Assembly: GCA_964016885.1 (NCBI GenBank)
Contig: OZ024740.1
Coordinates: forward strand, 108,934,001-108,998,000
DNA from: Eledone cirrhosa
Lineage: Eukaryota
Length of the DNA stretch: 64,000 nt
Direction: 5' to 3'
The notes beneath the pieces were generated by a model, which was not told where the DNA came from, made no database searches, and worked only from the letters and a program-made list of their open reading frames with translations. Below are positions 1 through 31,365 of this stretch, piece by piece (position 1 is the stretch's first letter; the number at the start of each line of letters is the position of its first letter). Both the position numbers and the translations under genes were made by a program.

Positions 1-100
1 TTCCCTTTTCTATCAACCAATGACCTACACCCATCCCACTCCCCACCCCCTCCTACCACTTGTAGAGACCTATAAATACCATGTTTATTTTTTGATACCC

Positions 101-151
101 AGATTCATGATGATTTCTAAAGAATGAAACAGTTCTAGTCCTGTAGAATCT
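101..151 (+). ncRNA. Type I hammerhead ribozyme motif, core C3 mutated (probably inactive); Penelope/retrozyme-like
   Basis: AGATTC-aTGATGA-T TTC TAAA GAA T-GAAA-CAG TTCTAGTC CTG-TA-GAATCT. Stem I AGATTC/GAATCT. TATAAATA upstream at 71-78. Paralog at 22039-22089. Confidence 0.7.
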
Positions 152-235
152 CATCTATATTAAAACTATATATATATATATATAAAATATTAAACAAATA
201 ATGAATAAACAATTCCTTATATTAAACAAAAAAAG

Positions 236-389
236 TTCATTATTTAACGATCGTTTCTAGGATATATATGTGTTAGAATTGGCATGCATATTCAACAGAT
301 CTATGTACAAAATTATACAAAATTATACAAACTATCAAGATTAAATATACATACCAACACATATATACGCCGTCTTCAGAAATAATGAA
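236..389 (-). ncRNA. Type I hammerhead ribozyme motif with very long stem II
   Basis: Minus strand: TTCATTATTT-CTGAAGA-[115-nt hairpin]-GAAA-CGATCG-TT-AAATAATGAA. Perfect 10-bp stem I. Stem II has 12-bp and 15-bp helices. Confidence 0.65.
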
Positions 390-848
390 GTATATTTATT
401 GATAATAACAACAATTCAAAATTTCAGGTCCGTTTGGGAACAAAAATTGACCAATGAAAACACAAAGGGTTAAATGCAGTTCGGTGTGTGTATATACATG
501 TAAAACCCTTACACATATTTTACAAAAATGTATGTATAATTTGTATACGCATACTAAAAGGATGGATGCAAATACAAAATTTCAAGGTTAATGTCTCTGT
601 AAGTTTATAATGCACAGATAAGATGCGTATTGACACAAGTATGAAATTAAGTATATAAATATATTTTTTCATACTCACACATATCCGTACAATCACACAT
701 ACACGCGCGTATATGCATAAATATACACATAACCACGAACATACAAACACACACACACCCCCACTCACATTTATATATGTGGATATAAAATCATAAGCAC
801 ATGGATACTACGGATTGGACACTACCGTAAATTCTTGGTAGATTTATC

Positions 849-852
<4 letters not shown>

Positions 853-939
<87 letters not shown>

Positions 940-945
940 ATTTAT
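853..945. repeat. (TA)n microsatellite
   Basis: Direct reading. Many similar tracts, e.g. 2053-2110, 22148-22232, 44066-44145, 52042-52115, 62253-62532. Confidence 0.95.
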
Positions 946-1160
946 ATTAAAATGCAAGTGTCATGTCACAACCTCTTTGTGCTAGATTTGTTTGGGAAAT
1001 GCTAATATATTTTCCTCCCTATCCCTCTCTTTCTCACACAGTATTAACAAGCAGGTTAGTAGAAAAGCAGCTGCTACCTGTAGGCATCTATCTTCAGATA
1101 ATAAAAACATTTATCTATCTAACTGTCTATCTACCTACCTATCTACACACACACACACAC

Positions 1161-1499
1161 CATCATCATCATCATCATCATCATTTTACATCCGCTTTTC
1201 CTTGCTTGCAAGGGTGGGATGGGAACTGATTCTGGCTTGATTTCTACAGCTGGATGCCCTTCCTAACACCAACCCCATTTACAGTGAGTGCTGGGTGCTT
1301 TTTGCCATGGCACCTCCACGACCACTTTGCAGTGGAATGATAGGGACTGGAGTCCCTATCATCTCATTTCTACAGCTGAGTAAACTGGAGCAATGTGAAA
1401 TAAAGTGTCTTGCTCAAGGAAACAACACATCACCCGGTCTGAGAATTGAACTCACAACCATTCGATTGAAAGCCCAATACCACTAAGCCATGTGCCTCC
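1161..1499 (-). mobile_element. tRNA-headed SINE with RTE-derived 3' tail
   Basis: Reverse complement of 21533-21863. A/B-box-like head (TGGCTTAGTGG...GAGTTCAATTC) and (GAT)n tail. Confidence 0.75.
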
Positions 1500-2050
1500 A
1501 TATATAAAGTTAGTTCCACAACAAATCAACAAACTATCCTGGAGGATGCGTGTTTCCCTCAAAGAGATTTTCAACATTTTCAACTCAAGTGAGGTTGTGC
1601 TGAAAAACTGAACTTGTTCTATGGACTGAGTGCCTACTTACTATGGATATAACTTCCCGGTGTTCTACCACTATATATAAATATATATATACACCACTTT
1701 ATCTATCTTCTACCTACCTATCTGTCTGTTTGCCTGCTGTCAACCCATAGTTATCTCTCTATCTCTATTTACTAATGCATCTAATTTTGGACAACAACAA
1801 CAAAGCACAAATCCCAATAGCAGTCCGAAGATAGATAGATGGATAAAAAGAGAAGTAGAACAATGTCATCATAATTTAGTGCCTTAAAGAGAATATGGAA
1901 GAAAATTAATGTAAATGATATGACTGTATGTAAAATGAAATATGATGATGGCTAGAGTGATAAGAAGAAGAAGGTCTATGTTGAAATCTAAGAATTATTA
2001 AATTAAATATTTGTTATTATAAATGGTCATTTTTTACAAGTACTATGCTA

Positions 2051-2113
<63 letters not shown>

Positions 2114-2539
2114 ATCATCACCACCATCCACATTATTAATATTTTATACCTGCATTTTATGCTAGTAGGCTTGGACCATATTATGTTCATATGTGAACTA
2201 TTTTACCATGGTTTCTATGGCTAAATGCCCTCCCTAATGCCAACCACTTTACAGAGTGGACTGGATGTATTTTACTGTCATACCAGTACTAGGGAGGTTA
2301 TCATGTTTTTGGCAAAACTAAAGAATCCTCTCTACCCCATATTGTCTCCATTTGATCACCAGCCACTTTGCAAAGTGTAATGAGTGCATTTTATCATGGT
2401 TCCACCACTAGAGATGTTGACATTATCTTAATGTCATATATATATATACACACATTTTTAAATACATATTCCTGTTGTATCCGTTTCTATACATATTATA
2501 CAGTTGTTTTGTTTATTACAGGAATGAAAGTTTCTCATT

Positions 2540-2540
<1 letters not shown>

Positions 2541-2620
<80 letters not shown>
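2541..2620. repeat. (GA)n microsatellite
   Basis: Direct reading. Confidence 0.95.
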
Positions 2621-2624
<4 letters not shown>

Positions 2625-4328
2625 AAGTAAGAGATAGAGAGCAGTGGTTAGAACTGGGAGTTGAACTACCAACATGATTTACCAACAAAGAGTAATTACT
2701 TACCACAAACTAGATAATTATAAAATAATTAAACATAATTTAAAAAGAATGAATAATGCTTTCCTTACAATATTCCTAATAAAAAGCACTGCCTATGATT
2801 TTTAATTATTTTGGAAAATAATGAAGAGTTGAGAGATTTAGTAATATAACTAACTTTTTTATTATTAAATTGGTGTTTGGCACAAAACGAAAAGATAAAA
2901 TTTAGAGGGATTTAGTAATATAACTAATGTTTTTCATTTTTAAGCTGGTGTTTGGAACATAACTTAACAAAAATTATTACATAAAATTATGATAGAAGGT
3001 TTGAATTTAAAACAAATGCCTATGTATCATAGAACCAGGAATGGTTTCAGGTCTCAGAAGGGTTAAATAATAGGATTAAAAAGAGCATTTTGAAGAAATG
3101 TGCACAGTGAAATATATATTTAGGAATGGAAGGTGAAAAAGGGTGAAGATTCAAATCCTGCATTTGTCATCCCATGAAGTTGAAGAAGAGATAAGATATT
3201 TGCAATAGTGTACTTGGTGCAATTTTAATTAATGACCAATAATTAGACCAGGATAGAAATAGCATACAAATCTACCTCAAATGAACCCTACCGTCTTATA
3301 AATAGGACTCATTGGATAGTGAAGACAGGGATACACTATAGCTGAAAAATAAACAAAAGATATGATGATCTTGGTTGGAATGTTTTTGGTCTTAGGACTG
3401 ACTTGGGACTAAACCACAACAATGACAACAACAACAATTTAGAGGGTTAAAAAGCAACACACATTGTTTAAATAAAAAAAAACAAAAAAACAAAACAGAC
3501 ACACACTGAAGTAAAACAAAAAAATGAAGAAACATCTTTTACAGTTGTTATAAAATGTCTATTTACATTTAATGGTTGTAGTAATGATAGTGTTGATAAT
3601 AATCATAACAATGAAAATGGTTTCTAATTTAGGCACAAGGCCAGTAATTCTGATGGGAGGCTAAAACTGATTATATCAGCCATAGAAGGATGAAAGGTAA
3701 AGTTGACCTTGGTAAGATTTGAACTTAGTATGTAAAGAGTTGGAACAAAAACAAAGCTAAAGATTTTAAAAAAATAAAATTACCTAAAAGGTCTTGTATT
3801 ATTTAAAATGGCTGTGTGGCATGCATTAACTAACTAAAGTGATGTATTACTTATAATGGTGTGTTATGCATGGACCAAAGTAAAGGTTTGCCTCAGATGG
3901 GCCATTGTGGCATTGTCTGTGGATCTCAGGGCTTTTCAACTTTTTACATGTAACAAAACAAAGTACCATCTGGGTAGGTTTATGAATGAAGACATGTTTG
4001 GGCAAGTGAACCCTCCTGGCCAGGGTTCATTCCCAGGTATAGTCTGGGGTTCAATCCCATCCAGGAACTGGAGTAAAAGCTTTTCATATGCAATGTATGA
4101 TATAAGATACTTGTGGGCCAAACTAGAATCAAAATCAAATATGGTTCATTACAAAAAGAACTTGCTGAACTTCCCATCCCTGAAGTAAAGTGATGTAGGA
4201 TTGTGAAGGACACAAGTGATATATTGCTTACAATGGTATACTGCTTGTGTGACATGCAATAACTACAGTGACATAAGGTTGTGAAGGACTTCAGTAAAGT
4301 GATACAAATATTGCGAAAGACCTTGAAA

Positions 4329-4362
<34 letters not shown>

Positions 4363-4403
4363 ACCAGAGAAAATGTTGAGGTAAAGTTTTAATACTGATT
4401 TAC

Positions 4404-4412
4404 CTTTTCTTT
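4404..4412 (-). CDS. Nrg: Candidate 9-nt cytoplasmic microexon of the neuroglian-like gene (phase 2-2)
   Basis: ttctttcttttttcatttatgcttacag|AAAGAAAAG|gtaaat. Frame-preserving, with UGC just before the 3' splice site. Confidence 0.5.
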
Positions 4413-4599
4413 CTGTAAGCATAAATGAAAAAAGAAAGAATGGAAATGATGACAAAAGAAAATGTTGAAGTTCTGTTTGGGGTGAATTCTTTTACAGTCA
4501 AATAACTTATCAAATATTTTTTAATCATATCATTAACAAGCAATAATTATTTTAATTCAGAGTATCCCTAGTTTTCAGGGCAAAAACAGAAGAAAGCAT

Positions 4600-5012
4600 G
4601 TGAAGTTTATAATAGGCACACAGTAGTTGATTTCATTTCAGTTTTATTATTTAATTAGATCATTAGTCAATTAATTTATCAATTGATTAATTGGTTTGTT
4701 AAAGTTCTTTCATCACATCCTGGGACCTTATCAATGTCTTTCCTCCCCTTGTGAACCTTAGTGTCTAATGATGAAATTTAAATGAATTTCATCATTATGT
4801 TCTGAGAAATAAACAAAAAGCAGGAAATAAGTGCTGATAAGGAGAAAGTGCATAAGGGGCCCAGTCATTCATAAGGTCACAGGCTGTGACAAAAGTACTT
4901 TGATTTTGACAAACCAATTAATTAATTGATTAGCTAATTAATTAATAAAACTGAAGTGAATTACAACTAGTGCATGTGTTTTTATATATTGACAGTATGA
5001 CCCTCCCAAAGT
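4600..5012. mobile_element. Degenerate palindromic MITE-like element
   Basis: Imperfect inverted arms around a central hairpin (atgatgaaatt...aatttcatcat). Related sequence at about 18960-19303 (gaccctcccaaagta end). Confidence 0.4.
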
Positions 5013-6574
5013 ACAATATCTGATTGCACAAAGAATTTTGTGAAACAAATACAATAATGAAATAATTCATGATAATATTTGATTATAGCTGAAATGATTT
5101 ATAATTTGACCAACAAAAATTATAGAGTAATATACAGTCATTTTATAAACACGGGGGGAAAAAAGAACCAAAAATTTGATTTAGCAAAATAACTAACTTT
5201 CTTATTTTTTATCTGGTATGATGAAAAGTTTTAGATAAATAACCCTTTCATGACCATTTTTCTAATGGTATGCACTGTATTTCATTTACCATGTGTGTGT
5301 GTGAATATTTTACTGAAATATTTTACAAAATTCTATGTAAATGAGGTGTTAAAATATTTTCTCTTTGGAGGTGAATATTACACCCGTTTCACTTTCAATG
5401 TGAAATTCATATTTTCTATTGTTTTTTTATATGCTTTAAAGAAATTCGGCCTTCAAAATGGTTGGATATTGGTAAAAAATCATTACATAATGGAGTTATG
5501 AAACAAAAGCTATACTCTAAATGGTACTTAAAACATTTTAAATATCAAAATATTAAAACTTCATAAATATATTCTCCATTCATGAGAATTTCAAAACCGC
5601 ACCATCTAACCATAATGTGTTGATTTACATGCTTCGGCTTATAAATAGGGTTTGGATTTTTGACTATTTTTCAGACACAAAATTGGGGATTGGCATATAT
5701 TTGAGTATATATAGTAATTAATAAAGTATTTGGAGGGATTTACTAAAATTATTAATTATTTCATTATTAAGATGGTATTTGTAACAAATGGTTCTTACAT
5801 AAAATTTTGTTGGAAGATTTTAATTTAAATAGGAACTCTTTAAAATGAGTGGTTTTGTTCCATAGAACCAGAGCTGGTTTTGGCCAGGTTGGTATCAAAA
5901 GACTTAACATAATACAGATGTTATTACATATTGAAAACATTTATAGAAAACATAAAACAAGATAACAATTTGTAAAGAAATAACATTGTATATAGAATCC
6001 TATCCTTGGTTGTCCAGGAGATAAAAATTTCAGTTTAATAATATCAACTTAGGTTGGTAGGAAGTTAAGATGTTTTTCTTTAATCAACTATAAATTATTA
6101 TATAGGCAAAATGTTTCAATTTTTTAGAGAATGGAGGTTGTATGATGTAACGCCCATACCTTTCCTAACAACATCAAAGATAATAGATACCTGTAATTCT
6201 GGCAGTAATATAATAGGTGCATGCAATATTGGGGATTTGGGTAATATAGGTATATGTAATATTGGGGGTAAATTTAACAATTATACCTCAGGAGTGGGCA
6301 GTGCATTGAGTCCTTGAGCAAGACCCTTTATTTCATGTAGATCCAGTTCTCTCAGTTGTGATGTCACTGGTGCCAAGCTGTATCGGCCTTATGTGCAAAT
6401 CCCATAGTCATTCGTGACTGAAGGGGGTCTTAACACACACACACATATATATATATATGTATTTGTGGATTCAAGACATTAATAAGGTGGCACTTGAAAT
6501 ATGGCCCTGGTAAGAGACAGTGGAGAAGGATATGTAGTATATATATATATATATATATAAAGTTTATGACTTAC

Positions 6575-6644
6575 TTTTTATTGTCATTGCCATGGTCATC
6601 AGTACTATATGGTTCATGTCCACGTAATCGTTCTTCTTCTTGTA
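6575..6644 (-). CDS. Nrg: Neuroglian/L1-family exon, proximal cytoplasmic tail (VQEEERLRGHEPYSTDDHGNDNK)
   Basis: tcttcag acceptor, gtaagt donor. Phase 1 continues KYD-V from the TM exon and ends in phase 2. Confidence 0.8.
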
Positions 6645-7644
6645 CTGAAGAGAAACATATAGTTTTAAATACAATACATAGATAGATAGACAGACAAACA
6701 AATAGACAGATATTGGATAAACATATGTTTCGGATAGTTCAAGCTTGTATTTTGTTGTTGGGTGCATTGTGCAAAGAAAAAAAAAATGAATATATATATA
6801 TAAAAAACATGAGAAGAATATGCATTTGAAAAACTGTCATAAAAGGCAGTATGTTTACATCTTCGTTATAAAGGTTAGAAAATATAGAACACTTCATGAA
6901 TTTGCACTAATTTAATTAGGATGAGTAGACATTGCCTATAAGCCAGCTGTGTGAAAACAGGTATTTTGATTTTATTAGATTATCTTAGCAAAGAATATTG
7001 GTTAGATAAAAAAAAGGGATGTACCCACCTGAAGAAAACCAGAGGTTACAATGAGCAAAAATTGTTATTATAATAACCAAGATGAGGACACTAGACTGAT
7101 TAAATTTTCAATTGTCTCAAATATTTCTCTCAAAATAAATGAATTTATTTTAAAATAACTCTGAAATAGATAAAATATTTTGTCCCCAATAACCTCTCTA
7201 GTGCTGTTATCTTGATAAAATGTACTCAATTCACTCTTTAAAGGAAGTAGTGTTGGAACCATGATAAAAAGAACCCAGTACACTGTTAAATGTTAGAGCT
7301 GATGCCATGATAAAAAGCATTCAGTACACTCAGTAAAGTGGTAGAGTAGATGCCACAATAAAATGCACCCAATACACTCTGTAAAATGGTAGTGTTGGTG
7401 CCATGATAAAATACACCCAGTATACACTGTAAAGTTGTTAGTATTAGGAAGGGCATTCAGCTCTAGAAACCAAGCCAAATATGCAAGAATTGGTTTTCCA
7501 GCCAGTCTAGCCCAAACCGTAATGACCCAAGCAACTAATGTCAACATGGAAGCAGAAGTAACATGATGATGTTGATGAAATGCTTACTTTTTTTTTTTTT
7601 AAATGTTCAAATAGTGGACTGCAAATCAATAAACTATGACTTAC

Positions 7645-7770
7645 CATCATATTTAGCTTCACGGTTTCTTTTGGCAATACACACAATGATCAGAATGAGG
7701 ATGAGAAGAGCAATTGCCACCATCATAGCAATAAACCAGGTAGCAGAAGTTAGATCTTGAGTAGCTGTGC
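7645..7770 (-). CDS. Nrg: Neuroglian/L1-family transmembrane exon (TATQDLTSATWFIAMMVAIALLILILIIVCIAKRNREAKYD)
   Basis: Matches the L1-family WFIxxMxAIALLILILxIVC.KRNRxxKY motif. AG/GT boundaries. Confidence 0.93.
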
Positions 7771-9600
7771 CTTAAAATATATACAAATAGAAAATTAATA
7801 TTAGACTTAGAAATTTTTCAAAATGTTTGATTTTGGTAATATATAACACAATCATGGCTGTATGGTTAAAGAGTTCACTTCATAACCATGTGGTTTTGGG
7901 TCTAATCCCACAGCACGGCACCTTGGGCAAGTGTCTTCTACTATAGCCTTGGGTTAATCAATGCCTTGTGGGTGAAATTTGGTAGATAGAAAATGTGTGA
8001 GTCCGTGCCTGTGTTTATATCCTGTAACTTATCCGATTGATAGATAAAAACCAATAAAATATGTATCAGACTTTTAAAAACAGGTACTAAGGTTGATAAG
8101 ATTGACTAAATTTGTTGAAAGTCTTGCTCAAGCACGACTACAGTCTAATGACTGAAACCAGAAAAAATACAGAACTGGATAGTCTGATAGAAGATAAATT
8201 CTATTATTGTATGTAAGTAATGCCATATTCAGTGATGTATATAGAATTTGTGCTGCCTGGGCTGGTCCTTCTGCTTTCCAGTCACCCTCAATACACATCA
8301 AACATATTTTGTATGACTCCACCCTCCCTACTCATTGCTGCCATCTAGTTGCACTCTTGACACCGCAATACACATCAGACTTGAACAAAAAAAGTTTCAC
8401 TCTGAGTGTATTATCCCACCATTGCTGTCTTCTAGTTATGTTACTGACACCATCTTGTAAATGTCTGTTATTACTTCTCATTACTGCAATATATAAATGT
8501 ACTGATTCATAGCCTCTCACAACTAAAATAAAACAACAAACTGAATACAGAAAGTGACTATAGTAAATAGTTGTTGCCTCTTTGATTCCTGTTCAATGCA
8601 ATGTTTTTTGTATGACTTGTTGGTACCTATAAACAACTTTGAGGATGAAGAACATCTCTTCCCCAGGGATCTGTCATACATACACAGTAGGCCTGCAAGC
8701 ATTATTAAACATTAGTATACAGAATATATGTTTGATAAATAACATGAACATAGGTATACGATTTATAAAACATGCTAATAATTGTTTCTACTTTCGGCAC
8801 AAGGCCAGCAATTACCCAGTACATTACTGGTACTTTATTTTATCGACCCTGTAAGGATAAAAGGCAAAGTTAACTTCGGCAGGATTTGAGCTCAGACCGT
8901 AAAGAGTCGTAACTATGCTGCAAAGCATGGCGTCTGACTCTCTACCGATACTGCCAATTCACCGCCCCAATAAAACATGCTAATAATGGAGGTGATAGAG
9001 CAAGAAATGCAATAGATATATAGTCAAGCATAAAGAGAGATCTGATATTTTGATATAATACTAATTTGTAAGTAGCCATAGCTTTCCTAAGACACACCAT
9101 TTGATTATAGCTAGGTATTACCATGCTTAGATGGATAGAATGATTGTCTTAACCTTAACTAATCTCTAAGTATCAGTATGACAAATAAAGAATAGATAAA
9201 GACAAAAGATGTATTGAGATGATGCAGAGGTGAAAATATTGATCTGAACATGTTTCAACATGATCAAATATGATGCTGGAATAATATAGATATTTGTTTT
9301 AAACCATGGAATCCAGAAAGAATGGAAAATGGGATGAAATATGACAAAATTATATATCAATATATACAATGGGTAAGATAGAACCACAGATTATAAACAA
9401 TAGCAAAAATAGAAAAGTGGGGATTAGTTCATATTTATGCGTATGGAGTGAAAGTAAAAAAATAAAATAAAAAAAGGATGAGTGAAGATAGCGAAGTTCA
9501 TTGATTAGAAGTATTAAATTGTACTGAAGTAGATATAGATAGATTATTGTGAATATCTAGGATATAATGGTAGAACTATAAAATATTAATGAACCTTTAA

Positions 9601-9811
9601 TCCTTTAGCATTTATATTACTCTATATATACTATTGTATTTTTATTATTGCATTTTTATTATCTCACATAATATCAAATCTATGAGATTTTAATATTATT
9701 TATTTTGAGAACAATACTTTAACATCAGTATGAGTGGCCAGTTATGGCTAGTTTGAACAGAAAGAGGTGAAAGAATTCTGGCTGGATATGGCTGGTTTAA
9801 ATGCTAAAGGG
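9601..9811. mobile_element. piggyBac-type MITE (TIR CCTTTAGCATTT, TTAA flanks)
   Basis: ttaa-tcctttagcattt ... aaatgctaaaggg-ttaa. Close paralog at 51317-51520. Confidence 0.75.
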
Positions 9812-12800
9812 TTAAATAAGAACAAATAGGTTCATTGAAAGTTGTCTCAAAATTCTTTAAAATGGTAAGTCAATTGCCAGAGCTAATTATCTGTCTAGGA
9901 GACAAATAATTCATTATGAAAGTTGCAATGGGTGGAGGAGGATTATGGTTGAAAGATACAACCAAACAAAGATAATTATGATCAATCCTAAATTTACAAG
10001 TAGGTATCTAACATAATGAAAGTAGTTTCAAAGCTAGGAAGAAGACAAAAACAAAAAAGAATATACTTAAGTCACATATTAAAAACAGTATCACACCCTC
10101 AAAATATATAATAAATTTACATTTCTAGTGACAGACACTGCCTAAAACTTTCAAATAATTTTGAAAATAATCAAGAATTTCAAAAGATTTAGTAATATAA
10201 CTAACTTTCTCATTACTAATCCAGTGTTTAGAACATAACTTAAAGTTTCTTATATAAAATAATCATAGAAGATTTTTTAGATAAATATAAACACTAAAAA
10301 ACAAAACAAAACACTTTTGTATTGTAGAACCAAGGGTAGTTTCAAGTGGTTTGGTGTCCAACAAGTTAAGATAATCCAATAACAAAATATTAAATAGCTT
10401 TTTCATACAGCACTGGCATGGCTGTGGAGTTGAGGTGTTTGCTTCAGAACCATATTGTTTTTGGTTTAGTCTCATTGTGCAGCACCTTACACAAGTGTCT
10501 TCTTTAACCTCAGGTTGATCAATACCTTGTGAATGAAATTTGATAGATGGAAACTGCAGAAAACCATTTTGCGTGTGCGAGTGTTTATACCCCATAACGT
10601 AGTGGTTCAACAAAATATATATCAGACTATAAATCCCTTCAAGGCCCCACCATACCCCAGTCTAATGACTGAAACCGGAAAAAAAATATATATATCCATA
10701 AATTGTAGAAGTTATAAATAATTCTTGGAACAAAGGATTAACCAATAAAAACATATTATAATAATTGCTAGTTTCAAAAGTTTCATGCTTCTATAGAAGT
10801 TATGAAAGCTATACTGTATGTTAGGTTATCACTATAAGAACCCTTTCATTACCATATTTATGCTGAGATATATTTCTTTTCTATTATTCTTTTAGTGGTT
10901 TCAGTCATTAAACAGTGACTATATTGAGACAGCCTTATATCAAACCCAGGACTTATTTTTTCAAGCCTGGTACCTATTTTATCAATCTCTTTTTGTTGAA
11001 TCACTAAGTTTCTGGGTATAAACACAGTCATCCACATATATATATAGATGGGCTTCTTCAGTTTCCATCTACCATATTTTGTTTTCGAGATATTAGTCAA
11101 GCTAAGGTTATAGTAGAAAACACTTGCCCTGGCTGTGAAGCGAACTCCTTAACGCTATGGCCATTCCTGTGCCTAAATTAATTTTGAAAATTATAAAAAA
11201 AATTCAGAGGCATTTAATAAAATAACTGAACTTGTTAGTAAGCTGGTGTTTAGAACATAAAATATTCTGAGATAAAATTATAATGAATAGTTTTAATATA
11301 AATAAGAGCATTTCAAAAGGAGTGGTTTGATATAATAGCTTTGGGCTGGTTTGTATAAAAGAAGAATGGGAGTGGGTGGGTTATATAATAGAAATAAAGG
11401 CAGTCTTGGGGTTGTTTATATCAGAAGGAATGGTTTTCATATTATAGAAATAGTGGTAGCTTTGGGGTGGTTTGTATCAAAGAGAGGAGGGGTTATATCT
11501 TAGAAACAGAGGCAGTCTTGAGGTGGTTTATATCAAGGATGAGGGGGGTGGGGTATATTATGGAAATAGAGGTAGTCTTGGATGGTTTATATAATAGAAA
11601 TAGAGGTAAAGGGCAGATATATATCAAAGGGGATGGTGGTGGGGGGCAGGGTTATATCAAAAGAGTTAATGAAGTACGTGGTTGTTTTATTTTTGTTTTT
11701 GTTAAAGTTTGTTTAGAGTATGCAAGGTGATGGAAAGAATTGTTAGATGCAAACAAAGTACATAAATATGATGAGAGGAATTCTGGAATGAAATCGAAGT
11801 AAAGAAGGAGGATGAAATAATGTATTTAATGACAACAGGGTACTGAAGGATGAAGAAAGGATTTATTGATTAAAATAGAAGTACTAAAAGAGGATGGATT
11901 TATTTGATTAAAATAGAAGTACCAAAAGAGGATGAAAGGAACTATTTGATGAAAAGAAACACATTTTTTTAACCCTTTTGTTACTGTATGTCTAATGAAA
12001 TACTTTGTATTTTGATTAATTAATGAAGAATTTAGGAAGGATTTATTAAAATTATAATTTCATTAAGATGTTATTTGCAACATGACAAAATATTCTTGCA
12101 TAAAATTATGTTGGAAGGTTTCAATTAAAGTAGGAATCCTTTAAAATTGGTGGATTAGTTTCATAGAACCAGAACCAGTTAAGGGTGGGTTGGTAAAAAA
12201 AGTTTTAGAGATATAGAGATGTGTAAGATGATGTATAAGAACCAAAGATACGGCACCTAGCAAAAATGGCCTCCAGTCTATGAGCATTGTTATACAGTAT
12301 CTATATTAGTATTGGATATAAGCAGGCAAAAATGTTTAGGGTGTTTGCTTTGTAGTTGTGAGATCCTAGGTTCTATCTCACTGCATGACATTTTGGGCAA
12401 ATGTCATTTACCATAGCATTGAGTTGACTTAAGATTTTTTAGTGAAATTGAGAGAACAGAAACAGTTTAGAAGCCTGACAAATGGATTGTAACAGTAATT
12501 CAATGGTGTGGTCTTGTGTCACACTGATTCCACTTGAGAATTACATGTATCTGTGGAATACTCAGCCACTTCACACACAAATTCTTTGAGTTGATCATTC
12601 AATTGATTGAACAACTGGAAGCTCACACTTTGTTGTTGGTGGAAGAGTCCATCCTTCATGTAACTACTGTCTCTTCTATAATACTTATCAATGGGATATT
12701 AACACTTATCAATGAGATTTGAAATCAGAATGTACAGAGCTGGATAAGAAACTGCAAAGCATCCCATTTGACTTTTTAACAATTTGGCCAATCTTCCATT

Positions 12801-13965
12801 CTTGGGCTAGTACTTCATCAACCTTGAAAGAATGAAAGGTAAAATTGATTTGGGCAGGATTTGAACTCAAAGCATAGACAGCCAGAACAAATATCAAGGT
12901 ATTTAATATGATGTTCTAACAATTTTGTCAACTTGCATACTATAATTGAACAAATTATCATTTATGATAGAGTTTTCAATCAATTAAAAAAATTCCATAC
13001 CTCATAGAATGTTATTTTGAAATGAATTATTTAAGTTATACATTAAAAACCTGTTCCTTTTCTTTTGAAAATTAAATGTTGCTATTGTATAAGTGAGCAA
13101 AATTTTACTGTCATATTCGATATATATATATATATGGGCTAAGTGGGTTGCAACCCAGGGCCCCATAATCCAAAAGGAAGGTGGTGGGGAGAGACAGAGA
13201 CACTGGTTTAAATATACATTGGTGCTTTTATTAGCACATGGCTAGTGGTACCAGGTTTAGTTTGTCTTGATAAAGCGAGTATGGGCTACAACATTATTTT
13301 GTTGGGTTACTAAACTATTTTTCCTTACGATTTGTAAAGCCAGACTGTGGAACTACTTACTCTGTATTATATATACTTTCTCTTACACAACTAAATTTTC
13401 TCTAGTCCAGGGCCCCTAATTGCTTTAATCCAACTCTGTTGTATCAAAGAATATTTTGTTTCTTTTTTTAAACACAGGTGTTATTTTTTTTTATTTTGAA
13501 AAATTAATTTAAGTAACTAAATACAAAATAAATAAATAAATAAGACAGAAAATATGTGGCACATTTTATAGATAATTCAGTAATATGTACTGTTTAATTT
13601 AATTTAATTTAAATTAATTGAAATAATTTTTAAGAACATAATCTCCTGTCTTTATTTTCTCCTAGTTTCATATCACAAAATCAAGGACAGTTTCAGGCAG
13701 TTTGGTAGCAATAGGGTTAATATAGATATAACATAAAAACTCTAAATTCAGTCATATAAAGCCTGTTGTTGTACCACATATTTTTGATGGGAAAAGAATT
13801 AGAAAATGAGTTAAGATGAGCAAACACTATGATGATGTTAGTAGTAAAAATCCCAAGTACCATTTTAGTTAGTGTTCACAATAGAATATTTTAGAAAGGA
13901 GGAAGAGGAATTGAATAAATGTCAGAGTACCTATATATTTCACAGGCATTTATATATATATTTAC

Positions 13966-13989
13966 CTGAAATCACTATAGAAGTTGGAG
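13966..13989 (-). CDS. Nrg: Candidate 24-nt juxtamembrane microexon (APTSIVIS), phase 1-1
   Basis: aaatgcttatttcag|CTCCAACTTCTATAGTGATTTCAG|gtaaat. Open and in phase between the FnIII-5 and TM exons. Confidence 0.55.
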
Positions 13990-14287
13990 CTGAAATAAGC
14001 ATTTGTATAGAGGTTTTGCATGAAAACAATGACAAAAAGCAAAATAGCAAATAATGGAAAACATTCAGACATTCAAATAAAAATGTACACAATCTAAGGG
14101 TGGTGCCCCAGCATGGCCTCAGTTGGATGGTTAGAACAGGTAAAAGAGTAAAAGAGTAATACAAGAATAATAGAAGCAAGAAGACAAGGAAAATATTTGA
14201 AAGATTCATTGTTAAATAGTGTAATAAAGTGCTAAATAGATAGATAATGGACTACGGTAATGATGATGGTGGTAATAATAGTAATAC

Positions 14288-14317
<30 letters not shown>

Positions 14318-14319
<2 letters not shown>

Positions 14320-15165
14320 GTTTCTGATTTAGGCACAAGACATGCAATTTTGGAAAGAGGAATGTTGACTGGTACCTTATGTTATCAACCCCAAAAGGAT
14401 GAAAGGCACCTTATTTTATCAAGCCTGAGAGAATGAAAGGTAAAGTCGACTTTAGCAGGATTTGAAGTCACAATGTAGAAAGTTGTAACTAAATACAGCA
14501 AAGCATTTTGTCTGAAGCTCTACTGATACTGCCAATTCACTGCCCTTTTTAAATTTAACAGGGGAACAGCAAGTCTGGTACAAAAATAATAATGGCTTCT
14601 AATTTTGGCACAAGGCCAACAATTTAAGAGGGGTCTTAGTCAAATACACCAATCCAGGCATTTGGTGCTTTATTTTATTGAACCCAAAAAGATGAAAGGC
14701 AAGTTTGACCGTGGCAGAATTTGAACTCAGAACTACTGATTTCTTTATTGGTCACTCTTATATATCTATATGGTGAAAAATTGCATGTCTAGCTAAATAC
14801 TAATTGTTTCTACTTTTGGCACAAGGCCAGCAATTACCCCAGTACATTACTGGTGCTTTATTTTATCGATCCTGTAAGGATGAAAGGCAAAGTTAACCCC
14901 ACTGGGATTTGAACTCAAAGCATAAAGGGCCATAACTCTATGCAGCAAAGCATGGTGTCTGACACTTCACTGATACTGCCAATCCACCATCTGGCTAAAT
15001 AATAATTGTTTCTACTTTTAGCACAAGGCCAGCAATTACTCAGTGCATTACCGGTACTTTATTTTATCGACCCCGTAAGGATGAAAGGCAAAGTTAACCT
15101 CGGCGGAATTTGAACTCAGAATGGAAAGGGTCGTAACTCTACCGATACTGCCAATCTATCGCCCC
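14318..15165 (-). mobile_element. Cluster of about 4 tandem tRNA-derived SINEs (MetaSINE-like core)
   Basis: Repeated ggcacaaggccagcaatt...tttatcgaccccgtaaggatgaaaggcaaagtt...ggatttgaactc. Minus strand carries the B-box GAGTTCAAATCC and GCCTTTCATCCTT.CGGGGTCGATAAAAT. Other copies near 8780, 18661, 27610(+), 35445(+), 38434 and 56845. Confidence 0.7.
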
Positions 15166-15828
15166 TAAATAATAATGTGATGTGGCTAGAGTATTTTCAA
15201 GCCATTCTTACTGAGAATGCAATGCAAATATAGCAAAGCTTCTATCTCTAATAAACTCATTCAGGTACATATGGCTATCTCATTGCTGAATAGATTCAAT
15301 TTCAATTTGACTCATCAAGCAAAGTGCTAATTAATTAGGAATTGATAAAAGAAGGGGAGGAGGAAGGAAGGAAAAATAATAACGATGAGAAGAAGGGAGA
15401 GGAAGAGAAGGAGAATAATAATAATAAGAAGAGGAGGAAATGTTTTAAAACGTAGAGAGGCAGGGTAGCATCTAAAGCATCATTTTGTTCATCATCATCA
15501 TCATTAGCAGGCCTTCTAAAAGAAAGCCTGCTAATGGTAATGATGATAATGATGAATGATAATAATAATAATAATAATAATAATGATGATAATAATAATA
15601 ATGATGATGACGATGACGATGATGATGATGACGATGATGATGATGATAGCTAGCTAGCTAGAATCTTGGCAGTAGCCATTCATAAGCTATAATATAGACT
15701 GGAAAAAGGTTTCTGTTATAAAATAAAATAGAAACAACAAACAAAACAAAACATAATAAAAATATCACACTCACACATGGAACTGAAGGATATTTATAAC
15801 AAGACATTGGTGTAAAATAGATGTTTAA

Positions 15829-16261
15829 CCCTTTTGTTACCATATTTCTAATGAAAAACAATGCCTATAATATTCAAACAATTTTGAAAATAATCTAGAA
15901 TTTTAAAGGTTTTAGTAATATAAGCTGGTGTTTTGGAGCATAATTCAAGGGTTTTAAGATGAATTTATAATGGAAGGTTTTTAATCAGCTTTGTATAGTA
16001 GAACCAAGGGTTGTTTCAGGCAGTTGGTATCAAAAGGGTTAATTCTTTTGTTACCATATTTTTAAGGAAATATATTGCCTATAATTTTCAAATAATTTTG
16101 AAAATAATCTAAGGATTTAGTAATATTACTAACATGGTGCATGGAACATAATTTAACAAAGGTTCTTGCGAGGTGAGGTTTTTAGATGATAAATACTTTG
16201 AATTAAAATGTTTTGTATCATAAAACCAAGAGAGGTTTCAGGCAGTCTGATACCAAAAGGG
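15829..16261. mobile_element. Two tandem piggyBac-type MITEs sharing a TTAA (TIR CCCTTTTG.TACCA)
   Basis: ttaa-cccttttgttacc...ggtatcaaaaggg-ttaa-ttcttttgttacc...taccaaaaggg. Reverse copy at 38099-38338 and many degenerate copies elsewhere. Confidence 0.7.
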
Positions 16262-16479
16262 TTAGTCACCAAAAAATAAAGGTGATACAAAGAGATTCAA
16301 TATAAGATATAAAAACCACACTCACAACAACAAAAGCAACAAAAACAACAACAAATATTTTAAGGCCATTATCCTTGTTAGGGTTAGCCTTGTGGTACCT
16401 ATGACAAGCTTCAATATCCCCCCCCCCCCTCCAGCTTTCATTTCCTCCACCAACATCTTTAGCCATGTCTTGATCTTCC

Positions 16480-17040
16480 ACAATCATTTTCATTATCCCC
16501 CTCACCCAGTTACTTTCATCCTTCCTCAATACATGACTTAACTATCTAATTCCATTTCTATTCACAACATCCATCACTAGTTCTATTTTCATCACTCCTC
16601 TCACCTAGTCATTTTCATGTTTCTTTAGTATATGACTCAAGCATCCCTTTCTATTTCTCTTTACAACATTCATCACTAATTCTATCCCCATTATGCTTCT
16701 CACCTAGATACTTTCATATTTCCTCAACACATGACCCAGCCATCTCATTCTATTTCTCTTTATATCACAGTCTCTATCCCCATCACTCCTCTCACCCAAT
16801 TACATTCTTCCTCACCACATAACCCAGCCATGTCATTCCATTTCTCTTCACATCACTGGCTCTCTTCCTATCACTCCTCACAGTTACATCCTTCCTCAAC
16901 TCATGAATCTAACCATCTCATTCCATTTCTCTTCACATCACTGGCTATATCCCTATCATTTCTCACACCCAGTTACATCCTTCCTCAATACATGACCCAG
17001 CCATCTCATTCCATTTCTCTTCACATCATTGGCTTTCTTC
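16480..17040. repeat. Degenerate minisatellite (about 65-75 bp units)
   Basis: Recurrent catcact..ctcacccagttac.tccttcctcaa..catgacccagccatctcattc. Confidence 0.65.
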
Positions 17041-17186
17041 CCAATATCAAAATACAACAACAATAATATAACAACCCAACCAGTTGCTCTACCGAAATCC
17101 AAATACAACAACAATAACAAAACAACTCAACTAGTTGTTCTACCATTTATAATAATCAGTTTTAATAATATTAAAGTAATAATCAC

Positions 17187-17345
17187 CTGGATTAGGCAGG
17201 GTAATTTTTTTCCAGCTACTTGCTGCTTGGTATTCACCACTTTTAGCAACAACTCTGAATTCATACCATATTCCAGCAGACAAATTAGATACATTCTGCC
17301 AGCGATTCAACATCTGACCAGGGGTGCGTTTCATATTGCTTTCAC
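17187..17345 (-). CDS. Nrg: Neuroglian exon, FnIII-5 C-half
   Basis: GESNMKRTPGQMLNRWQNVSNLSAGIWYEFRVVAKSGEYQAASSWKKITLPNP. aag acceptor, gtgatt donor, phase 1-1. Confidence 0.8.
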
Positions 17346-17880
17346 CTTTCATAAACAATAAATAAATAAAATAATATAAAATTAAGTAAAAGAGATTTGA
17401 AAGTTATTAAAATTAGAATTTGACATCTTTTATTATTTTATTTTTGGAAAGTAAAATTCAATGAGCATGCACGTGTGTGCATGTGTGTGTTTATGTCTAT
17501 GCAAGTGGCTGAGCATTCCACAGCCACATATACCTTTAACATTGTTCTGAGTGTGACACAATGTGTAACAAAGTTGGCAACATATGGTTTTTATATGTTG
17601 GACGATTTTTTAATTTACATAGGAACCCCTTAAAATAGATGGCTATGTTCTATAAGACCAAAGGCAGTTTGGTTGTGAAAGGGTTAAATTATAGCTATAA
17701 TTCATTTTTTCTAGCTGAGTGGATTGGAGCAATGAAAATAAAGTGTCTTGCTCAAGGACACAACACACCACCAGAAATTGAATTCATGATCTTACGATAA
17801 AAAAAAAATAACTCAAAATAGGTAACAGAATCCATTTTAAACAAATTAATTAAGTGGTATAACAAAATATGAAAACTTAC

Positions 17881-18009
17881 CAAATTTTCTATATTCTACA
17901 ACATGCACCAAACCTACATGTTGGTTAGTCTTGTTGTAATCAATTTCCCAAGATACATTTAATGAATTATTTCCCATTGGTGTCATGTTCCAGTCAGGGA
18001 CAATTGGCA
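17881..18009 (-). CDS. Nrg: Neuroglian exon, FnIII-5 N-half
   Basis: PIVPDWNMTPMGNNSLNVSWEIDYNKTNQHVGLVHVVEYRKF. tag/gtaagt boundaries. Confidence 0.85.
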
Positions 18010-19303
18010 CTAGAAAACAAATAATAATAATGATAATGATTTCATTTATTAGCCACAAGGGCCGACATGTAGGGGACAATACAAAGACAGGGTAGCTGAC
18101 AGTTAACTTTGTAACAACCACTAAGTATTCAAGATCAATATTATATTTATAAGTTTAATATATATGTATACATACATATACACACACACACACATATATA
18201 TCATCAACATCATCATCGTTTAACGTCCATATTCCACGCTTGCATGGGTTTGTATATATATATAAATTGACAAATGTCTGAAACTCCCAAAATGGAATGT
18301 TCTAAGCATTTATAATTTGACAATAAACAATATTTTTCGTACAGCATAGGGTTAAAAAAGAAAATTTCAACACCCCCACCTCTACTGCCACTGATTTCTT
18401 TCTCTCTTACACACAGTCTTGCCATCACTCTTTCATAGTGTAACTGAAATTTTAAAAAGTAATTCGTTTTTTAATTCTCTCTCTCTCCTACATACATATC
18501 TGCTTCCATAATAACATGAGATTAAGTATTTCACCATTTGCTGCCGCCATCACTACCCCCATTTTCATGCTCTCACATACACACTATTATCATTCCCTTT
18601 CCATGATGTGACCAATTTTTTACACCATACATAACCTATTATTAGTACTTTAATATAATATAATGGTTTCAAATTTATGCACAAAGCCAGCAATTTGGGG
18701 GAGGAGTAAGTGAATTAAATTGACTTTAGTACTTGACTGGTACTTTATTTTATCGATCCTGGAAGAAAGAAAGGCAAAGTTGACCTTGGCAGGATTTTAA
18801 TTCAGAACATAAAGAGCCAGAACAAATGCAGCAAAGCATTTGTCTGATGCTCCAATGATTCTACCAATCCAGAAAACCAATAATAAAAATAAAGACAGAA
18901 AAAACTAATGAAACTGACATAATGCATTTTCATTGATTTTGATTCATAAACATATGAACTTTACTGCCTTGGAGGACACATAGACTTAATGTTATAGTCT
19001 TCACCACCATTTGTCTTTCTCTGTAATATATTAGCATTTGATTTCTAACCTTGTTTTCTTTAAGAACCCCCCTGACCTCTCTGTGTTGACAACACACAAA
19101 AACAAGATGGTGTAGGACAGAACAAAGGAGAGACACAAAATAAAAACCTAGTCACTGAGGAGGTCACAGAATGTGTGACAAAAGAGCTTTGACAATATAT
19201 AAACAACTATCTGGTTATCGAACCAACCAGCCAACCGGAAATTGAAATGAAAACCAACAGGTGCATGTGTTTTTATTGGCAGTGCATGACCCTCCCAAAG
19301 TAT

Positions 19304-19350
<47 letters not shown>

Positions 19351-19531
19351 AACATCCATTTAGTATTGAAGAATATGAGAATGGGTACTCAATACTATAG
19401 GAGAGATTAATAATTTATAAAGATTGATTGCGCTGGAGTTTACTCCCAGCATGCCACCGGTTTCTCAGGAAGTTCAAGGATTAAATCTGTGGAACTGCTA
19501 ACATGATTATGATAACTATATATATATATAT

Positions 19532-19590
<59 letters not shown>

Positions 19591-20073
19591 TATATATATA
19601 TATATACATATACAGTCAGCTTCAGGATGGTGCATGTAATGCATGTAGACAATGGTAAAATACACCAGGCACACTTTGTAAACTGGCTGATGATTGAATG
19701 GACATAGAGTGGTTGGCATTAGGAATAGCATCCAGCCATAGAAACCATGCCAAAACTGTGGAAGAAATGAGTGCAATGTAGTCCTCCAACATGTCTATGA
19801 GTTCTGAAACTTTGAAAAGAATTGACCAGGACCATAACAATATCCCCAAACCATGCCAGCATGGAATGTGGATATAAAATTGTATTGATGATGGTGGTAG
19901 TGATGATGATGATGATGATGATGATAGTGATGATGATGATGATAGTGATAACGATGAGGATAATGAATGTAGAGGAAAGATACTAAATACTGTTCAATAT
20001 TTACTCTTGCACTCCACTATATTTTGGCCATCCCATTGTTAATTATGTAACTCTGTAGCCAGTCTAAACTTAC

Positions 20074-20256
20074 TTCCAGCATCAGTAGTAAACACATCAA
20101 TAGAATATGGTTCTCCTTCTCCAGCATTGGTTATTGCTTTTATATATATTCTGTAGTCTGTGCTGGGTTCCAAACCTCGTAGTAAGTATTCTGTCATTGT
20201 AGGGTCTGTGGTTGGTTCATCTTCATATGTTATTGGTGACAATTTGAAACCATTAA
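20074..20256 (-). CDS. Nrg: Neuroglian exon, FnIII-4 C-half
   Basis: ...EYLLRGLEPSTDYRIYIKAITNAGEGEPYSIDVFT. cag/gtaagt boundaries. Confidence 0.9.
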
Positions 20257-20644
20257 CTGTAGAAAAAAAAAATCCAAAAAAAAAAAAAAAACCAATAGAT
20301 TTCTTACCCAGCTTGTCCAACTTCATTAAATATTATATTGAAAAAATTTGGTTAGAGCTGTAAATTTCATTTGTTTGGATTTTACTATATTTCCAATGAA
20401 ATACACTGCCTATAATGTTAAAATCATTTTGAAAATAATCATGGATTTGGAAAGATTTTAATATAACTAACTTTTTCATTATTTATTTAGCATTTGAAAC
20501 ATTACTTAGCAAAAGTTTTTATCTAAAATTGTGATAGATGGCTTTTAGATTAATATAAACAATTTTATATTATAAAGACAGGAGTAATTTCAGGCAGTTT
20601 GATATAAAAGGCTTAAAAGAAATTCTACATATCAGAAAACTTAC

Positions 20645-20767
20645 TCTTTTGGAATCCAATATTATAGCCTGTTAACACACCATTCCTTTCTTCTGGAGGT
20701 TCCCATTTTAAATGGAAGTGTCCAGATCCTCGAACTAAAGCCATAAAAGAACGGACTTTGCCTGGTA
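20645..20767 (-). CDS. Nrg: Neuroglian exon, FnIII-4 N-half
   Basis: VPGKVRSFMALVRGSGHFHLKWEPPEERNGVLTGYNIGFQK. cag/gtaagt boundaries. Confidence 0.9.
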
Positions 20768-21146
20768 CTGTATAAAAAATAGAGAAAAAGAAACATAACT
20801 GTAATTGTTGCCTCATATATCATCAGTGACAGATTAAGGCAGGACTGATTGGACAATGGTCAGGAACCTCACAATTTTTGAAAGTCATTATAATAATCAT
20901 CATCATTTTTATGTCCATTTTTCCACATTTGCATGGAAAATCTAATTATTAATGTAAAATAAAATTATGATTCTCCAGCTGCTGTATAAATCACTTAAAA
21001 TAAAATTTTGCCAGAGATAGATTAACAAAATTTAATAAGGGTGGTGGTGGCAAAGTAAAAGTGGAAGACGTGGGATTGAGTTGGAAAAAATTTGAAAAAT
21101 TAATTAACAGGGATAGTGGGATTATTCAGGACCTGAGAGTATATTT

Positions 21147-21233
<87 letters not shown>

Positions 21234-21235
<2 letters not shown>

Positions 21236-21419
21236 CATCATCATCATCATCATCATCATTTTACGTCCGCTTTTCCCTGCTTGCAAGGGTGGGACGGGTC
21301 TTATTCAGCACACCATCTCTCCACTCGTCACGGTCCCTCGTCATCTCCACCGTGAGCTTCAATGATCTGAGGTCTGTTCTCACCACCTCCGCCCATGTTT
21401 TTCGTGGTCTACCTCTACC

Positions 21420-21420
<1 letters not shown>
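21234..21420 (-). mobile_element. Short 3' fragment of an RTE LINE
   Basis: Encodes GRGRPRKTWAEVVRTDL...RDRDEWR, followed by a (GAT)n tail. Inverted partner at 21877-22016. Confidence 0.75.
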
Positions 21421-21470
<50 letters not shown>

Positions 21471-21532
21471 TGTATGTATGTATGTGTATATATATATATA
21501 TATATATGATATGCATATATATATATATACAT

Positions 21533-21863
21533 GGAGGCACATGGCTTAGTGGGTAGAGCATTGGCCTTGCAATCGAAAGATTGTGAGTTCAATTCTCAGA
21601 CTGGGTGATGTGTTGTTTCCTTGAGCAAGACACTTTATTTCATATTGCTCCAGTTTACTCAGCTGTAGAAATGATAGGGACTGCGGTCCCTATCATTCCA
21701 CTGCAAAGTGGTCGTGGAGGTGTCACGGCAAAAAAGCACCCAGCACTCACTGTAAATGAGGTTGGTGTTAGGAAGGGCATCCAGCTGTAGAAATCAAGCC
21801 AGAATCAGTTCCCGTCCCACCCTTGCAAGCAGGGAAAAGTGGACGTAAAATGATGATGATGAT
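21533..21863 (+). mobile_element. tRNA-headed SINE with RTE-derived 3' tail
   Basis: Head TGGCTTAGTGGGTAGAGC...GAGTTCAATTC. Body ccttgagcaagacactttatttc. 3' part matches the RTE 3'UTR at about 61990-62135. Confidence 0.75.
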
Positions 21864-22038
21864 ATATATATATATATGGGCGGAGGTGGTGAGAGCAGTG
21901 AAACTCACCAAGGAGATGACGAAGGACCGTGACAAGTGGAGAGATGCTGTGCTGAATAGGACACGTCCAACCCTTGCAAGCAGGGAAAAGCGGACGGAAA
22001 ATCATGATGATGATGATATATAATGTTTAATATAGAAA

Positions 22039-22089
22039 AGCTTCTACAGGACTAGAACTGTTTCATTCATGAGAAATCATCAGGAAGCT
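22039..22089 (-). ncRNA. Type I hammerhead ribozyme with intact catalytic core, intronic and sense to neuroglian
   Basis: AGCTTC-CTGATGA-T TTC TCAT GAA T-GAAA-CAG TTCTAGTC CTG-TA-GAAGCT. GUA cleavage triplet. Stem I covaries with the copy at 101-151. Confidence 0.75.
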
Positions 22090-22144
22090 GCCTTGTATTG
22101 AGTACCTTACTTACTGTGGTTACCTCCGATTGAACCGGGGATAA

Positions 22145-22230
<86 letters not shown>

Positions 22231-22232
22231 TG

Positions 22233-25070: not shown

Positions 25071-25219
25071 ATATATATATATACATATGTATGTGTGTAT
25101 ATATATACATATATATAAATAAATATATATATATGTATATAACGAAGGAAATGTGGTAAGGAACCAGGTGGACCATAACGCACCAAAGTACTCAATACTT
25201 AGCGTAGTAGAGTGGGTAA

Positions 25220-25328
25220 TAGGAACAAGTAAGACCCCGACGGCTGAGCTCAAGCCTTTTCGACGGCTAATTCAGAATTAGCCGTCGAAACGGCTTGAGC
25301 TCAGCCGTCGGGGTCTTACTTGTTCCTA
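25220..25328. repeat. 109-bp near-perfect palindrome (54-bp arms, 1 mismatch)
   Basis: taggaacaag...ggctaattc a gaattagcc...cttgttccta. Confidence 0.95.
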
Positions 25329-25348
25329 TATATGTATATATATATATG

Positions 25349-25379
<31 letters not shown>

Positions 25380-25560
25380 ATACATATATATATATTTATA
25401 TATATATATATGTATATATATACATATATATATATTTATTTATATATATGTATATATATATATATAATACATATCTATAAATGAATTAATTTGGATATAT
25501 TTTTAATGCTTGAATAAGTAGCGTTTCAGTATTTTTTAAAAGAAACATTATTAAACTGAC

Positions 25561-30110: not shown

Positions 30111-30214
30111 TATTAATAAAATGACTGCAGAGCTTAGAGAGAGAGCATTGTATTTATAAGTAAAATTATTAATTTATAATCAGTACGGAAATTACTGTAT
30201 AGATGTTTACTTAC

Positions 30215-31335: not shown

Positions 31336-31365
31336 TTATATATATATGTGTAATTTATTACTTAC

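Follow-up and report, generated by a model that had tools for sequence, protein, structure and literature searches.

The L1CAM/neuroglian gene of the octopod Eledone cirrhosa holds, in the intron that corresponds to the one harbouring the vertebrate, neuron-specific RSLE microexon of L1, a nine-base sequence that is best explained as an optional, frame-preserving exon, probably included mainly in neurons under the control of the eMIC domain of Srrm234 and probably retuning the partners of the cytoplasmic tail by a basic patch and a serine. We assign to this reading as a whole a probability of about 0.62. According to the mechanism that we propose, the eMIC would recognise a UGC located between the pyrimidine tract and the AG, and this recognition would drive neural inclusion of the exon. 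Inclusion would then give the tail four consecutive lysines plus a serine, some 35 residues away from the membrane; the added charge would favour acidic lipids or FERM/ERM linkers, and the serine would be a possible phosphorylation site. No AP-2 signal of the YxxL type would be created and the ankyrin motif would stay unchanged. Finally, the exon would have originated independently of RSLE, at an intron where short optional inserts have been gained repeatedly.

Host gene and reading frame of the nine-base exon

All positions refer to the window, i.e. the whole stretch of 64,000 nt that was analysed, unless a contig is named (Table 1). Its exons match the Pfam profiles I-set and fn3 (in a profile scan of ten stretches, two matches exceed the curated cut-offs and one further fn3 match reaches 29.5 bits) and tile P0034, a neuroglian of O. 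sinensis, with identities of roughly 70-93%. The last tail exon was sought in the window, found not to be there, and located in the neighbouring stretch: the next constitutive exon starts at L001:7466, 2535 nt to the left of window base 1, and carries the FIGQY tail. This exon passes the cut-off of PF13882 with 45.2 bits, and its best matches are neuroglian- or NRCAM-named proteins of Octopus, Argonauta and cuttlefish (28 hits, 95 candidates). Ig domains, FN3 domains, a single transmembrane segment and a FIGQY (Bravo_FIGEY) tail, as found in the L1CAM/neuroglian family, are thus present, and from these matches the host gene is of the octopod L1CAM/neuroglian type. Exons for O. sinensis residues about 262-357 (Ig3) were not found in the window, where a gap of 200 N at 40930-41129 may hold them.

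On the minus strand, positions 4412-4404 read AAAGAAAAG, with tatgcttacag before and gtaaat after, so that letters, acceptor and donor are exactly those proposed in the initial annotation of this DNA. The upstream donor is 2162 nt away and the downstream acceptor 6937 nt. The same annotation had described the exon as symmetric, in phase 2 and placed after the proximal cytoplasmic exon, and as extending the tail by a lysine run closed by either serine or arginine. Both joins are indeed in frame (phase 2-2): skipping yields K-N-D at the junction and inclusion K-K-K-K-S-D, a net gain of three residues that leaves the frame open to the natural stop in either case (134 codons with skipping versus 137 with inclusion, counted from the transmembrane exon onward). 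There are four lysines, and the ambiguous residue is a serine. What had been overlooked is that inclusion also replaces the asparagine of the junction by this serine, since a phase-2 exon ending in AG must yield serine in the split codon. The exon is not an assembly error, because the region 4370-5356 shows 0 differences from contigs of three DNA runs, which stem from one sample and from which the assembly may have been built. The runs listed for the species are DNA-like contigs, and exon use is deduced from the isoforms of its relatives.

Table 1. Positions of the nine-base exon, its splice signals, its host gene and the Srrm234 locus
Feature	Position	Strand	Remarks
L1CAM/neuroglian gene (Ig, FN3, TM and tail exons)	1..52340	minus	profile matches, proteins of relatives
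87-nt exon before Ig1, after the signal peptide	52254..52340	minus	29 residues, present or absent in Octopus isoforms
Further probable alternative microexon (24 nt, phase 1), next to the membrane on its outer side	13966..13989	minus	
Transmembrane exon, 126 nt	7645..7770	minus	45 residues aligned with O. sinensis P0034, 93% identical
Proximal cytoplasmic exon, 70 nt, phase 1 to 2	6575..6644	minus	counterpart of human L1CAM exon 26
3' splice region of the 9-nt exon	4413..4472	minus	AG; TGC at -9 (4421-4419); 58-nt AG-free zone
Symmetric phase-2 microexon, 9 nt	4404..4412	minus	sequence; isoform pairs in relatives
5' splice site of the 9-nt exon, AG/gtaaat	4398..4403	minus	score 9.5; 17 donors of the gene 4.6-11.9
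Last exon with FIGQY motif	G000:C1:108931259-108931466		outside the window, ~2.5 kb left
Srrm234 locus, eMIC domain over two collinear exons	G000:C22:28146426-28167880	minus	L014, L015

Inclusion and skipping in coleoid relatives

Isoform pairs in relatives are, at the level of predicted proteins and contigs, the decisive support for the exon. Among 29 coleoid tails that were fetched, nine include it, 17 skip it, two stop at the donor of the upstream exon and one is frameshifted. Inclusion tails read ND(S/T)KKKKSDENG and skipping tails ND(S/T)KNDENG; the inserted peptide is identical in 9/9 inclusion tails while neighbouring residues vary. The inclusion form is represented by three models each of O. 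sinensis and O. bimaculoides, two contigs of a cuttlefish-NRCAM cluster and one member of a further cuttlefish-like cluster, and each of these four groups contains skipping forms as well. It is absent from five models of O. vulgaris, one of Argonauta and three of named cuttlefish (for the O. sinensis/O. vulgaris cluster, 15 of 16 members were listed). RefSeq itself holds pairs with and without the three residues, XP_029636040.1 (X1) and XP_029636041.1 (X2) in O. sinensis, and XP_014787108.1 and XP_052824013.1 in O. bimaculoides. Since the Logan contigs measure 4.4-5.7 kb and contain the whole frame of 1250-1290 residues, they are most simply taken as spliced transcripts. The conservation in other coleoids that had been put forward as a check is thereby borne out for O. 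sinensis, O. bimaculoides and the two cuttlefish-like clusters, and an alternative microexon conserved among coleoids is confirmed, as far as isoform sequences can tell.

Splice signals and probable neural regulation

The targets of the eMIC are marked by a UGC near the 3' splice site and by long pyrimidine tracts with UCUC, and further by long AG-free zones, weak 3' sites and CUAAY branch points; in non-vertebrate bilaterians, the eMIC is confined to neurons (PMC8797185, available parts). With these eMIC-dependent microexons, the coleoid exon shares a frame-preserving length (9 nt, within the range of 3-27 nt), alternative inclusion in the tails of relatives, a UGC, an apparently weak 3' site, a long pyrimidine tract and an eMIC-coding Srrm234 locus in the genome. 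Unlike typical targets, it has neither CUAAY nor UCUC, both of which are population enrichments that are not needed in every target. The locus was recognised by SRRM_C (PF15230) with 29.3 bits versus a cut-off of 27, and the match continues in the next exon, 21 kb further on the same strand. A cwf21 exon is found 1.2 Mb upstream (C22:29384840-29384914, L018); if it is part of Srrm234, the gene would exceed 1.2 Mb.

From these features, we consider neural inclusion of the exon to be likely. The main competitor is a genuine alternative microexon that is not neuron-specific or not driven by the eMIC (for instance biased to muscle, tied to development or under another RNA-binding protein), which we hold to be unlikely. 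The long polypyrimidine tract reported in the initial annotation speaks against it, being the longest of the gene, with 35/40 pyrimidines (0.875) at -50..-11 versus 19-28/40 (0.475-0.70) for constitutive acceptors. The UGC reported just upstream of the AG does so as well: TGC at -15..-3 occurs in both short alternative exons of the gene and in 0/15 constitutive acceptors. UGC by itself is nevertheless weak evidence for the eMIC, and the competitor draws on its frequency in the background, where 13.7% of the gene's 1514 YAG sites have a TGC at -15..-3. The acceptor also appears weak, scoring below 14/15 constitutive acceptors, although these were scored in-sample. Its AG-free zone of 58 nt is unremarkable beside a constitutive median of 44 (5/15 constitutive zones are longer). 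On the side of the competitor, neither a CTAAY branch point nor TCTC/CTCT was found in the 100 nt upstream of the exon, and a run of 29 U, 43 nt downstream, could bind other regulators. As for the 87-nt exon of the same gene, its 100 nt upstream contain no TGC.

The mouse counterparts point in both directions. The 12-nt exon of L1cam is eMIC-dependent, in line with an eMIC-driven exon in a genome that has an eMIC locus, whereas the 12-nt exon of Nrcam is classed as 'Neural' and not as eMIC-dependent (PMC8797185 table S2, as available), so that another regulator is possible. The overall interpretation that had been given to this sequence therefore stands in part: the exon is real, conserved in coleoids, located in the RSLE intron and adds lysines, while its neural, SRRM3/4 (eMIC)-driven use is likely and two other cis-features of eMIC targets are absent.

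Relation to the vertebrate RSLE exon

Human L1CAM exon 26 starts at c.3458 (PMC3972136), and a variant designated c.3531-12G>A (PMC11382719), taken with a G>A change 12 bp before exon 27 (PMC10913327), sets the start of exon 27 at c.3531; exon 26 is therefore 73 nt long. With the first four tail residues ending at Lys1147 and RSLE following directly after Tyr1176 (PMC2173551, available parts), exon 26 begins within tail residue 10 (phase 1) and ends within residue 34 (phase 2). In Eledone, the proximal exon (70 nt) likewise starts in phase 1 at tail residue 10, and its phase-2 end falls in residue 33. Newt L1 contains RSLE in 3/7 tails and lamprey RTLE in 3/15, in both cases at the aligned junction, with one lamprey form reading through into the intron; these vertebrate tails came from a representative search (best 150 of 360), and a homologue search aimed at vertebrates gave none among the best 120 of 272. 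The phase-2 intron was also seen in DNA, both in a paralogue of the genome and in 27 of 80 metagenome loci (kept from 142 confirmed), namely those holding both flanking exons. The RSLE-equivalent position claimed at the outset thus corresponds to the same intron, preceded by an exon running from phase 1 to 2 (70 versus 73 nt). Judged by position and phase, the intron is homologous with the vertebrate RSLE intron and the exon peptide is not.

The coleoid exon accordingly shares family, intron and phase with the 12-nt exons of L1CAM (exon 27), NRCAM and neurofascin (PMC2173551, PMC2173555, PMC7821500, PMC8797185, available parts), which are likewise symmetric and alternative and lie ahead of FIGQY, where the last tail exon begins. 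It differs from them by its length of 9 nt and by a basic peptide unrelated to RSLE, and neither the 12 nt nor the RSLE-like, YxxL-completing peptide of an RSLE orthologue was found in it. Vertebrate RSLE completes a YxxL motif for AP-2 and ezrin, whereas the coleoid tail has no preceding tyrosine and no YxxL. The junction serine is likewise treated differently, as it appears only upon inclusion in coleoids and is kept in both forms in vertebrates.

Optional inserts at the same intron in other animals

In annelid-like loci, whose last exon is 64-73% identical to that of Capitella, the RSLE-equivalent intron contains a cassette of 21 or 24 nt bounded by AG and GT (23 of 80 loci, 15 distinct flanks; for instance at L027:5038-5058, L031:~644-727 and L044:1291-1314). 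Among the 27 loci in which both flanking exons were present, the cassette occurs in all 12 of orthologue type, and the remaining 15 gave no match to the annelid-like cassette peptide. The corresponding protein cluster comprises both forms, four members with eight residues and one without. With PYMELK encoded by the 21-nt exon and PYMPL in P0024, the tyrosine-x-x-leucine lies inside the exon. In the spliced contig L031, a further 62 nt precede the cassette and end the frame early. A TGC at -20..-6 was considered as support for eMIC control of these exons, but it is found in 8/15 last-exon acceptors as well as in 14/15 distinct flanks; as last-exon acceptors share it and the 14 are close relatives, we give it little weight.

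Elsewhere in molluscs, the gastropods Haliotis (5/15 short) and Gigantopelta display a difference of four residues (12 nt) at the junction, for which back-translation suggests an alternative donor and not a cassette. In Tegillarca, one gene model, a single prediction, is 16 residues longer at this point, and the added stretch opens with four lysines. No insert was seen in 14/14 amphioxus, 8/8 spider and 13/13 crab tails, counts from which one tail-less crab model and four members of the spider cluster were left out; gene annotation often misses microexons. Crab neuroglians (P0169, P0229-P0241) have a separate switch, a choice between two tail ends whose sequences part immediately ahead of the FIGQY region.

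The RSLE intron appears from these data as a recurrent splicing site, probably through convergence, and an independent origin of the coleoid exon is most likely, ahead of descent from a common exon. The alternative of deep homology supposes a single bilaterian microexon whose sequence and length turned over and which was lost in several lineages. Its appeal comes from the shared phase-2 intron, occupied by 12 nt in vertebrates, 9 nt in coleoids and 21-36 nt in annelids, from the regular presence of the cassette in annelid-like orthologue-type loci, from the tyrosine-x-x-leucine common to vertebrate and some annelid-like inclusion forms, and from the Tegillarca insert that opens with the same lysine run. 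We nevertheless consider it quite improbable. The peptides have no likeness, and a DNA alignment of five microexon regions disclosed none beyond composition and splice/donor consensus. The amphioxus, spider and crab tails counted above are free of inserts, and the 353-nt phase-2 intron of the paralogue at C1:246.37 Mb contains no YAG-3n-GT candidate. A recent preprint traces just two neural exons (APBB, MADD) back to the bilaterian ancestor and infers much convergence within the same region (bioRxiv 10.64898/2026.09.05.749416, available parts).

A broader view, which we put forward tentatively and at less than even odds, is that this intron site is a pan-bilaterian neural switch, either gained repeatedly or descended from one ancestral neural microexon with turned-over sequence. 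Its outputs may then be YRSL in vertebrates, YMEL or YMPL in annelid-like animals, a polybasic patch with serine in coleoids and a 12-nt alternative donor in gastropods, the polybasic patch being perhaps common to coleoids and the ark clam. In the ancestral variant, the exon may represent a third bilaterian-ancestral neural microexon, missed by exon-orthology pipelines because of its turnover.

Tail chemistry and possible function

The RSLE form of L1 binds AP-2 and ezrin, the short form binds neither, and ankyrin binds both (PMC2173555, available parts); the site is therefore a known partner switch. Ser1181, just past the RSLE exon, is a CK2 site (PMC2173551, available parts). By analogy, the optional neural exon that we favour would switch partners in the same stretch of the tail. 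Coleoid tails lack the tyrosine found in the FxEY motif of the family, a point previously overlooked, and because of this loss neither coleoid isoform has a YxxL signal. The proposal that lysines are added instead of an endocytosis signal is consistent with this, the inclusion form having neither tyrosine nor YxxL, and the ankyrin motif FIGQY is identical in both forms. Runs of at least three basic residues in this stretch are found in 8 of 272 tails scanned, six of which are coleoid inclusion forms, and K-S-D occurs at this junction in long forms of other molluscs. ERM proteins are known partners of basic clusters, and basophilic kinases favour serines preceded by lysines. With no tyrosine in place, the likeliest outputs would be electrostatic: acidic lipids or a FERM domain could bind the four lysines, and the serine would be offered only upon inclusion. 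Of the 60 PDB matches listed among 290, all are to the ectodomain and none to the tail.

Conversely, the encoded lysines could be functionless and the microexon tolerated and nearly neutral, its sequence being fixed by splicing through a purine-rich enhancer and an AG donor. All nine bases are purines and the last two are donor consensus, and the lysines could simply follow from the purine-rich composition of the exon; the insert also falls in a variable linker, probably disordered, with many lineage-specific indels. This reading is very unlikely in our view, as the same peptide and the same alternative status are found in octopods and in cuttlefish-like lineages, whose split is roughly 270 million years old, and repeated gains at one site argue for selection.

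Chance expectation for microexon candidates

Splice matrices were derived from 15 acceptors and 17 donors of the gene itself, constitutive sites being scored in-sample, and all YAG-(3n, 3-27 nt)-GT candidates across the gene were evaluated with thresholds set after the candidate had been seen. On the sense strand, 3/760 candidates score as high as the nine-base exon (0/669 antisense): the exon itself, the 24-nt exon (13989-13966) and a site of 6 nt (2709-2704). When a donor score at least equal and at least 75% pyrimidines are combined, 1/760 remains on the sense strand versus 0/669 on the antisense strand. The 6-nt AG..GT candidate, on the minus strand of the same intron, was rejected: its donor is strong, but it has no UGC nearby and no isoform support. 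That a site of this kind scores as well lends something to the idea of a chance intronic AG..GT motif unused as an exon in Eledone, which is extremely improbable given that the exact three residues, together with the change from asparagine to serine, recur in nine proteins of relatives.

Novelty and significance

The orthologous exon is already contained in automatic RefSeq isoform models. In the available parts of the literature searched, we found no description of the coleoid nine-base exon or of its relation to RSLE and no paper on the eMIC programme in molluscs, and the available text of PMC8797185 does not mention octopus or molluscs. The situation resembles type I convergent neural exons, i.e. 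different exons in the same coding region of orthologues, and such same-region convergence is described as common in a study that has O. bimaculoides among its species (bioRxiv 10.64898/2026.09.05.749416, available parts). L1CAM or Nrg is not named in the main text of that study as available, and its supplementary datasets may list the exon. Surprise is therefore limited, since the exon is annotated automatically and same-site convergence of neural exons has been described. New here are, on sequence comparison, the other optional inserts at the RSLE intron, in annelid-like genes (21/24 nt) and gastropods (12 nt).

If the exon is neural, cephalopods, whose brain enlarged independently of the vertebrate brain, would regulate the tail of an L1 adhesion molecule at the vertebrates' own site with a different chemistry. 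Besides, the nine-base exon offers a small marker for a molluscan eMIC programme that can be checked by RT-PCR, and the set of vertebrate, coleoid, annelid and gastropod inserts provides a natural comparison to ask whether selection keeps the position or the peptide.

Further observations on the gene and its relatives

The probable 24-nt exon agrees in place and length with eight optional residues of Octopus isoforms, its peptide having diverged. It has a TGC at -12 and the same donor, gtaaat, as the nine-base exon. Its counterpart in cuttlefish-like isoforms measures 27 nt, and the peptide diverges fast. In a small sample of six cuttlefish-like transcript tails and one partial tail, the 24-nt and 9-nt exons never occur together. 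The region of the 87-nt exon is optional in cuttlefish isoforms too (24 residues), and its place presumably resembles that of the 15-nt N-terminal microexon of L1CAM.

Read-through of the donor of the proximal tail exon (6574 onward, minus strand) meets a stop at once, and tails that end at this intron and lack FIGQY are seen in O. sinensis X6, one O. vulgaris model, Saccostrea X2 and Gigantopelta X3. The frameshifted end of O. sinensis X5 implies an insert of 8 nt and is perhaps an annotation artefact. The genome also holds two more L1-type tails: that of a paralogue at G000:C1:246369756-246369917 (L012, L020), which reads FIGAY and shares the phase-2 intron, and a more divergent one at G000:C2:86398375-86398461 (L013) that lacks FIGQY. 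Finally, the introns contain LINE-type reverse-transcriptase frames at 22635-25271 and 44713-45597, both on the minus strand, with fragments at 26000-29500; one of these frames extends over 879 codons from stop to stop.
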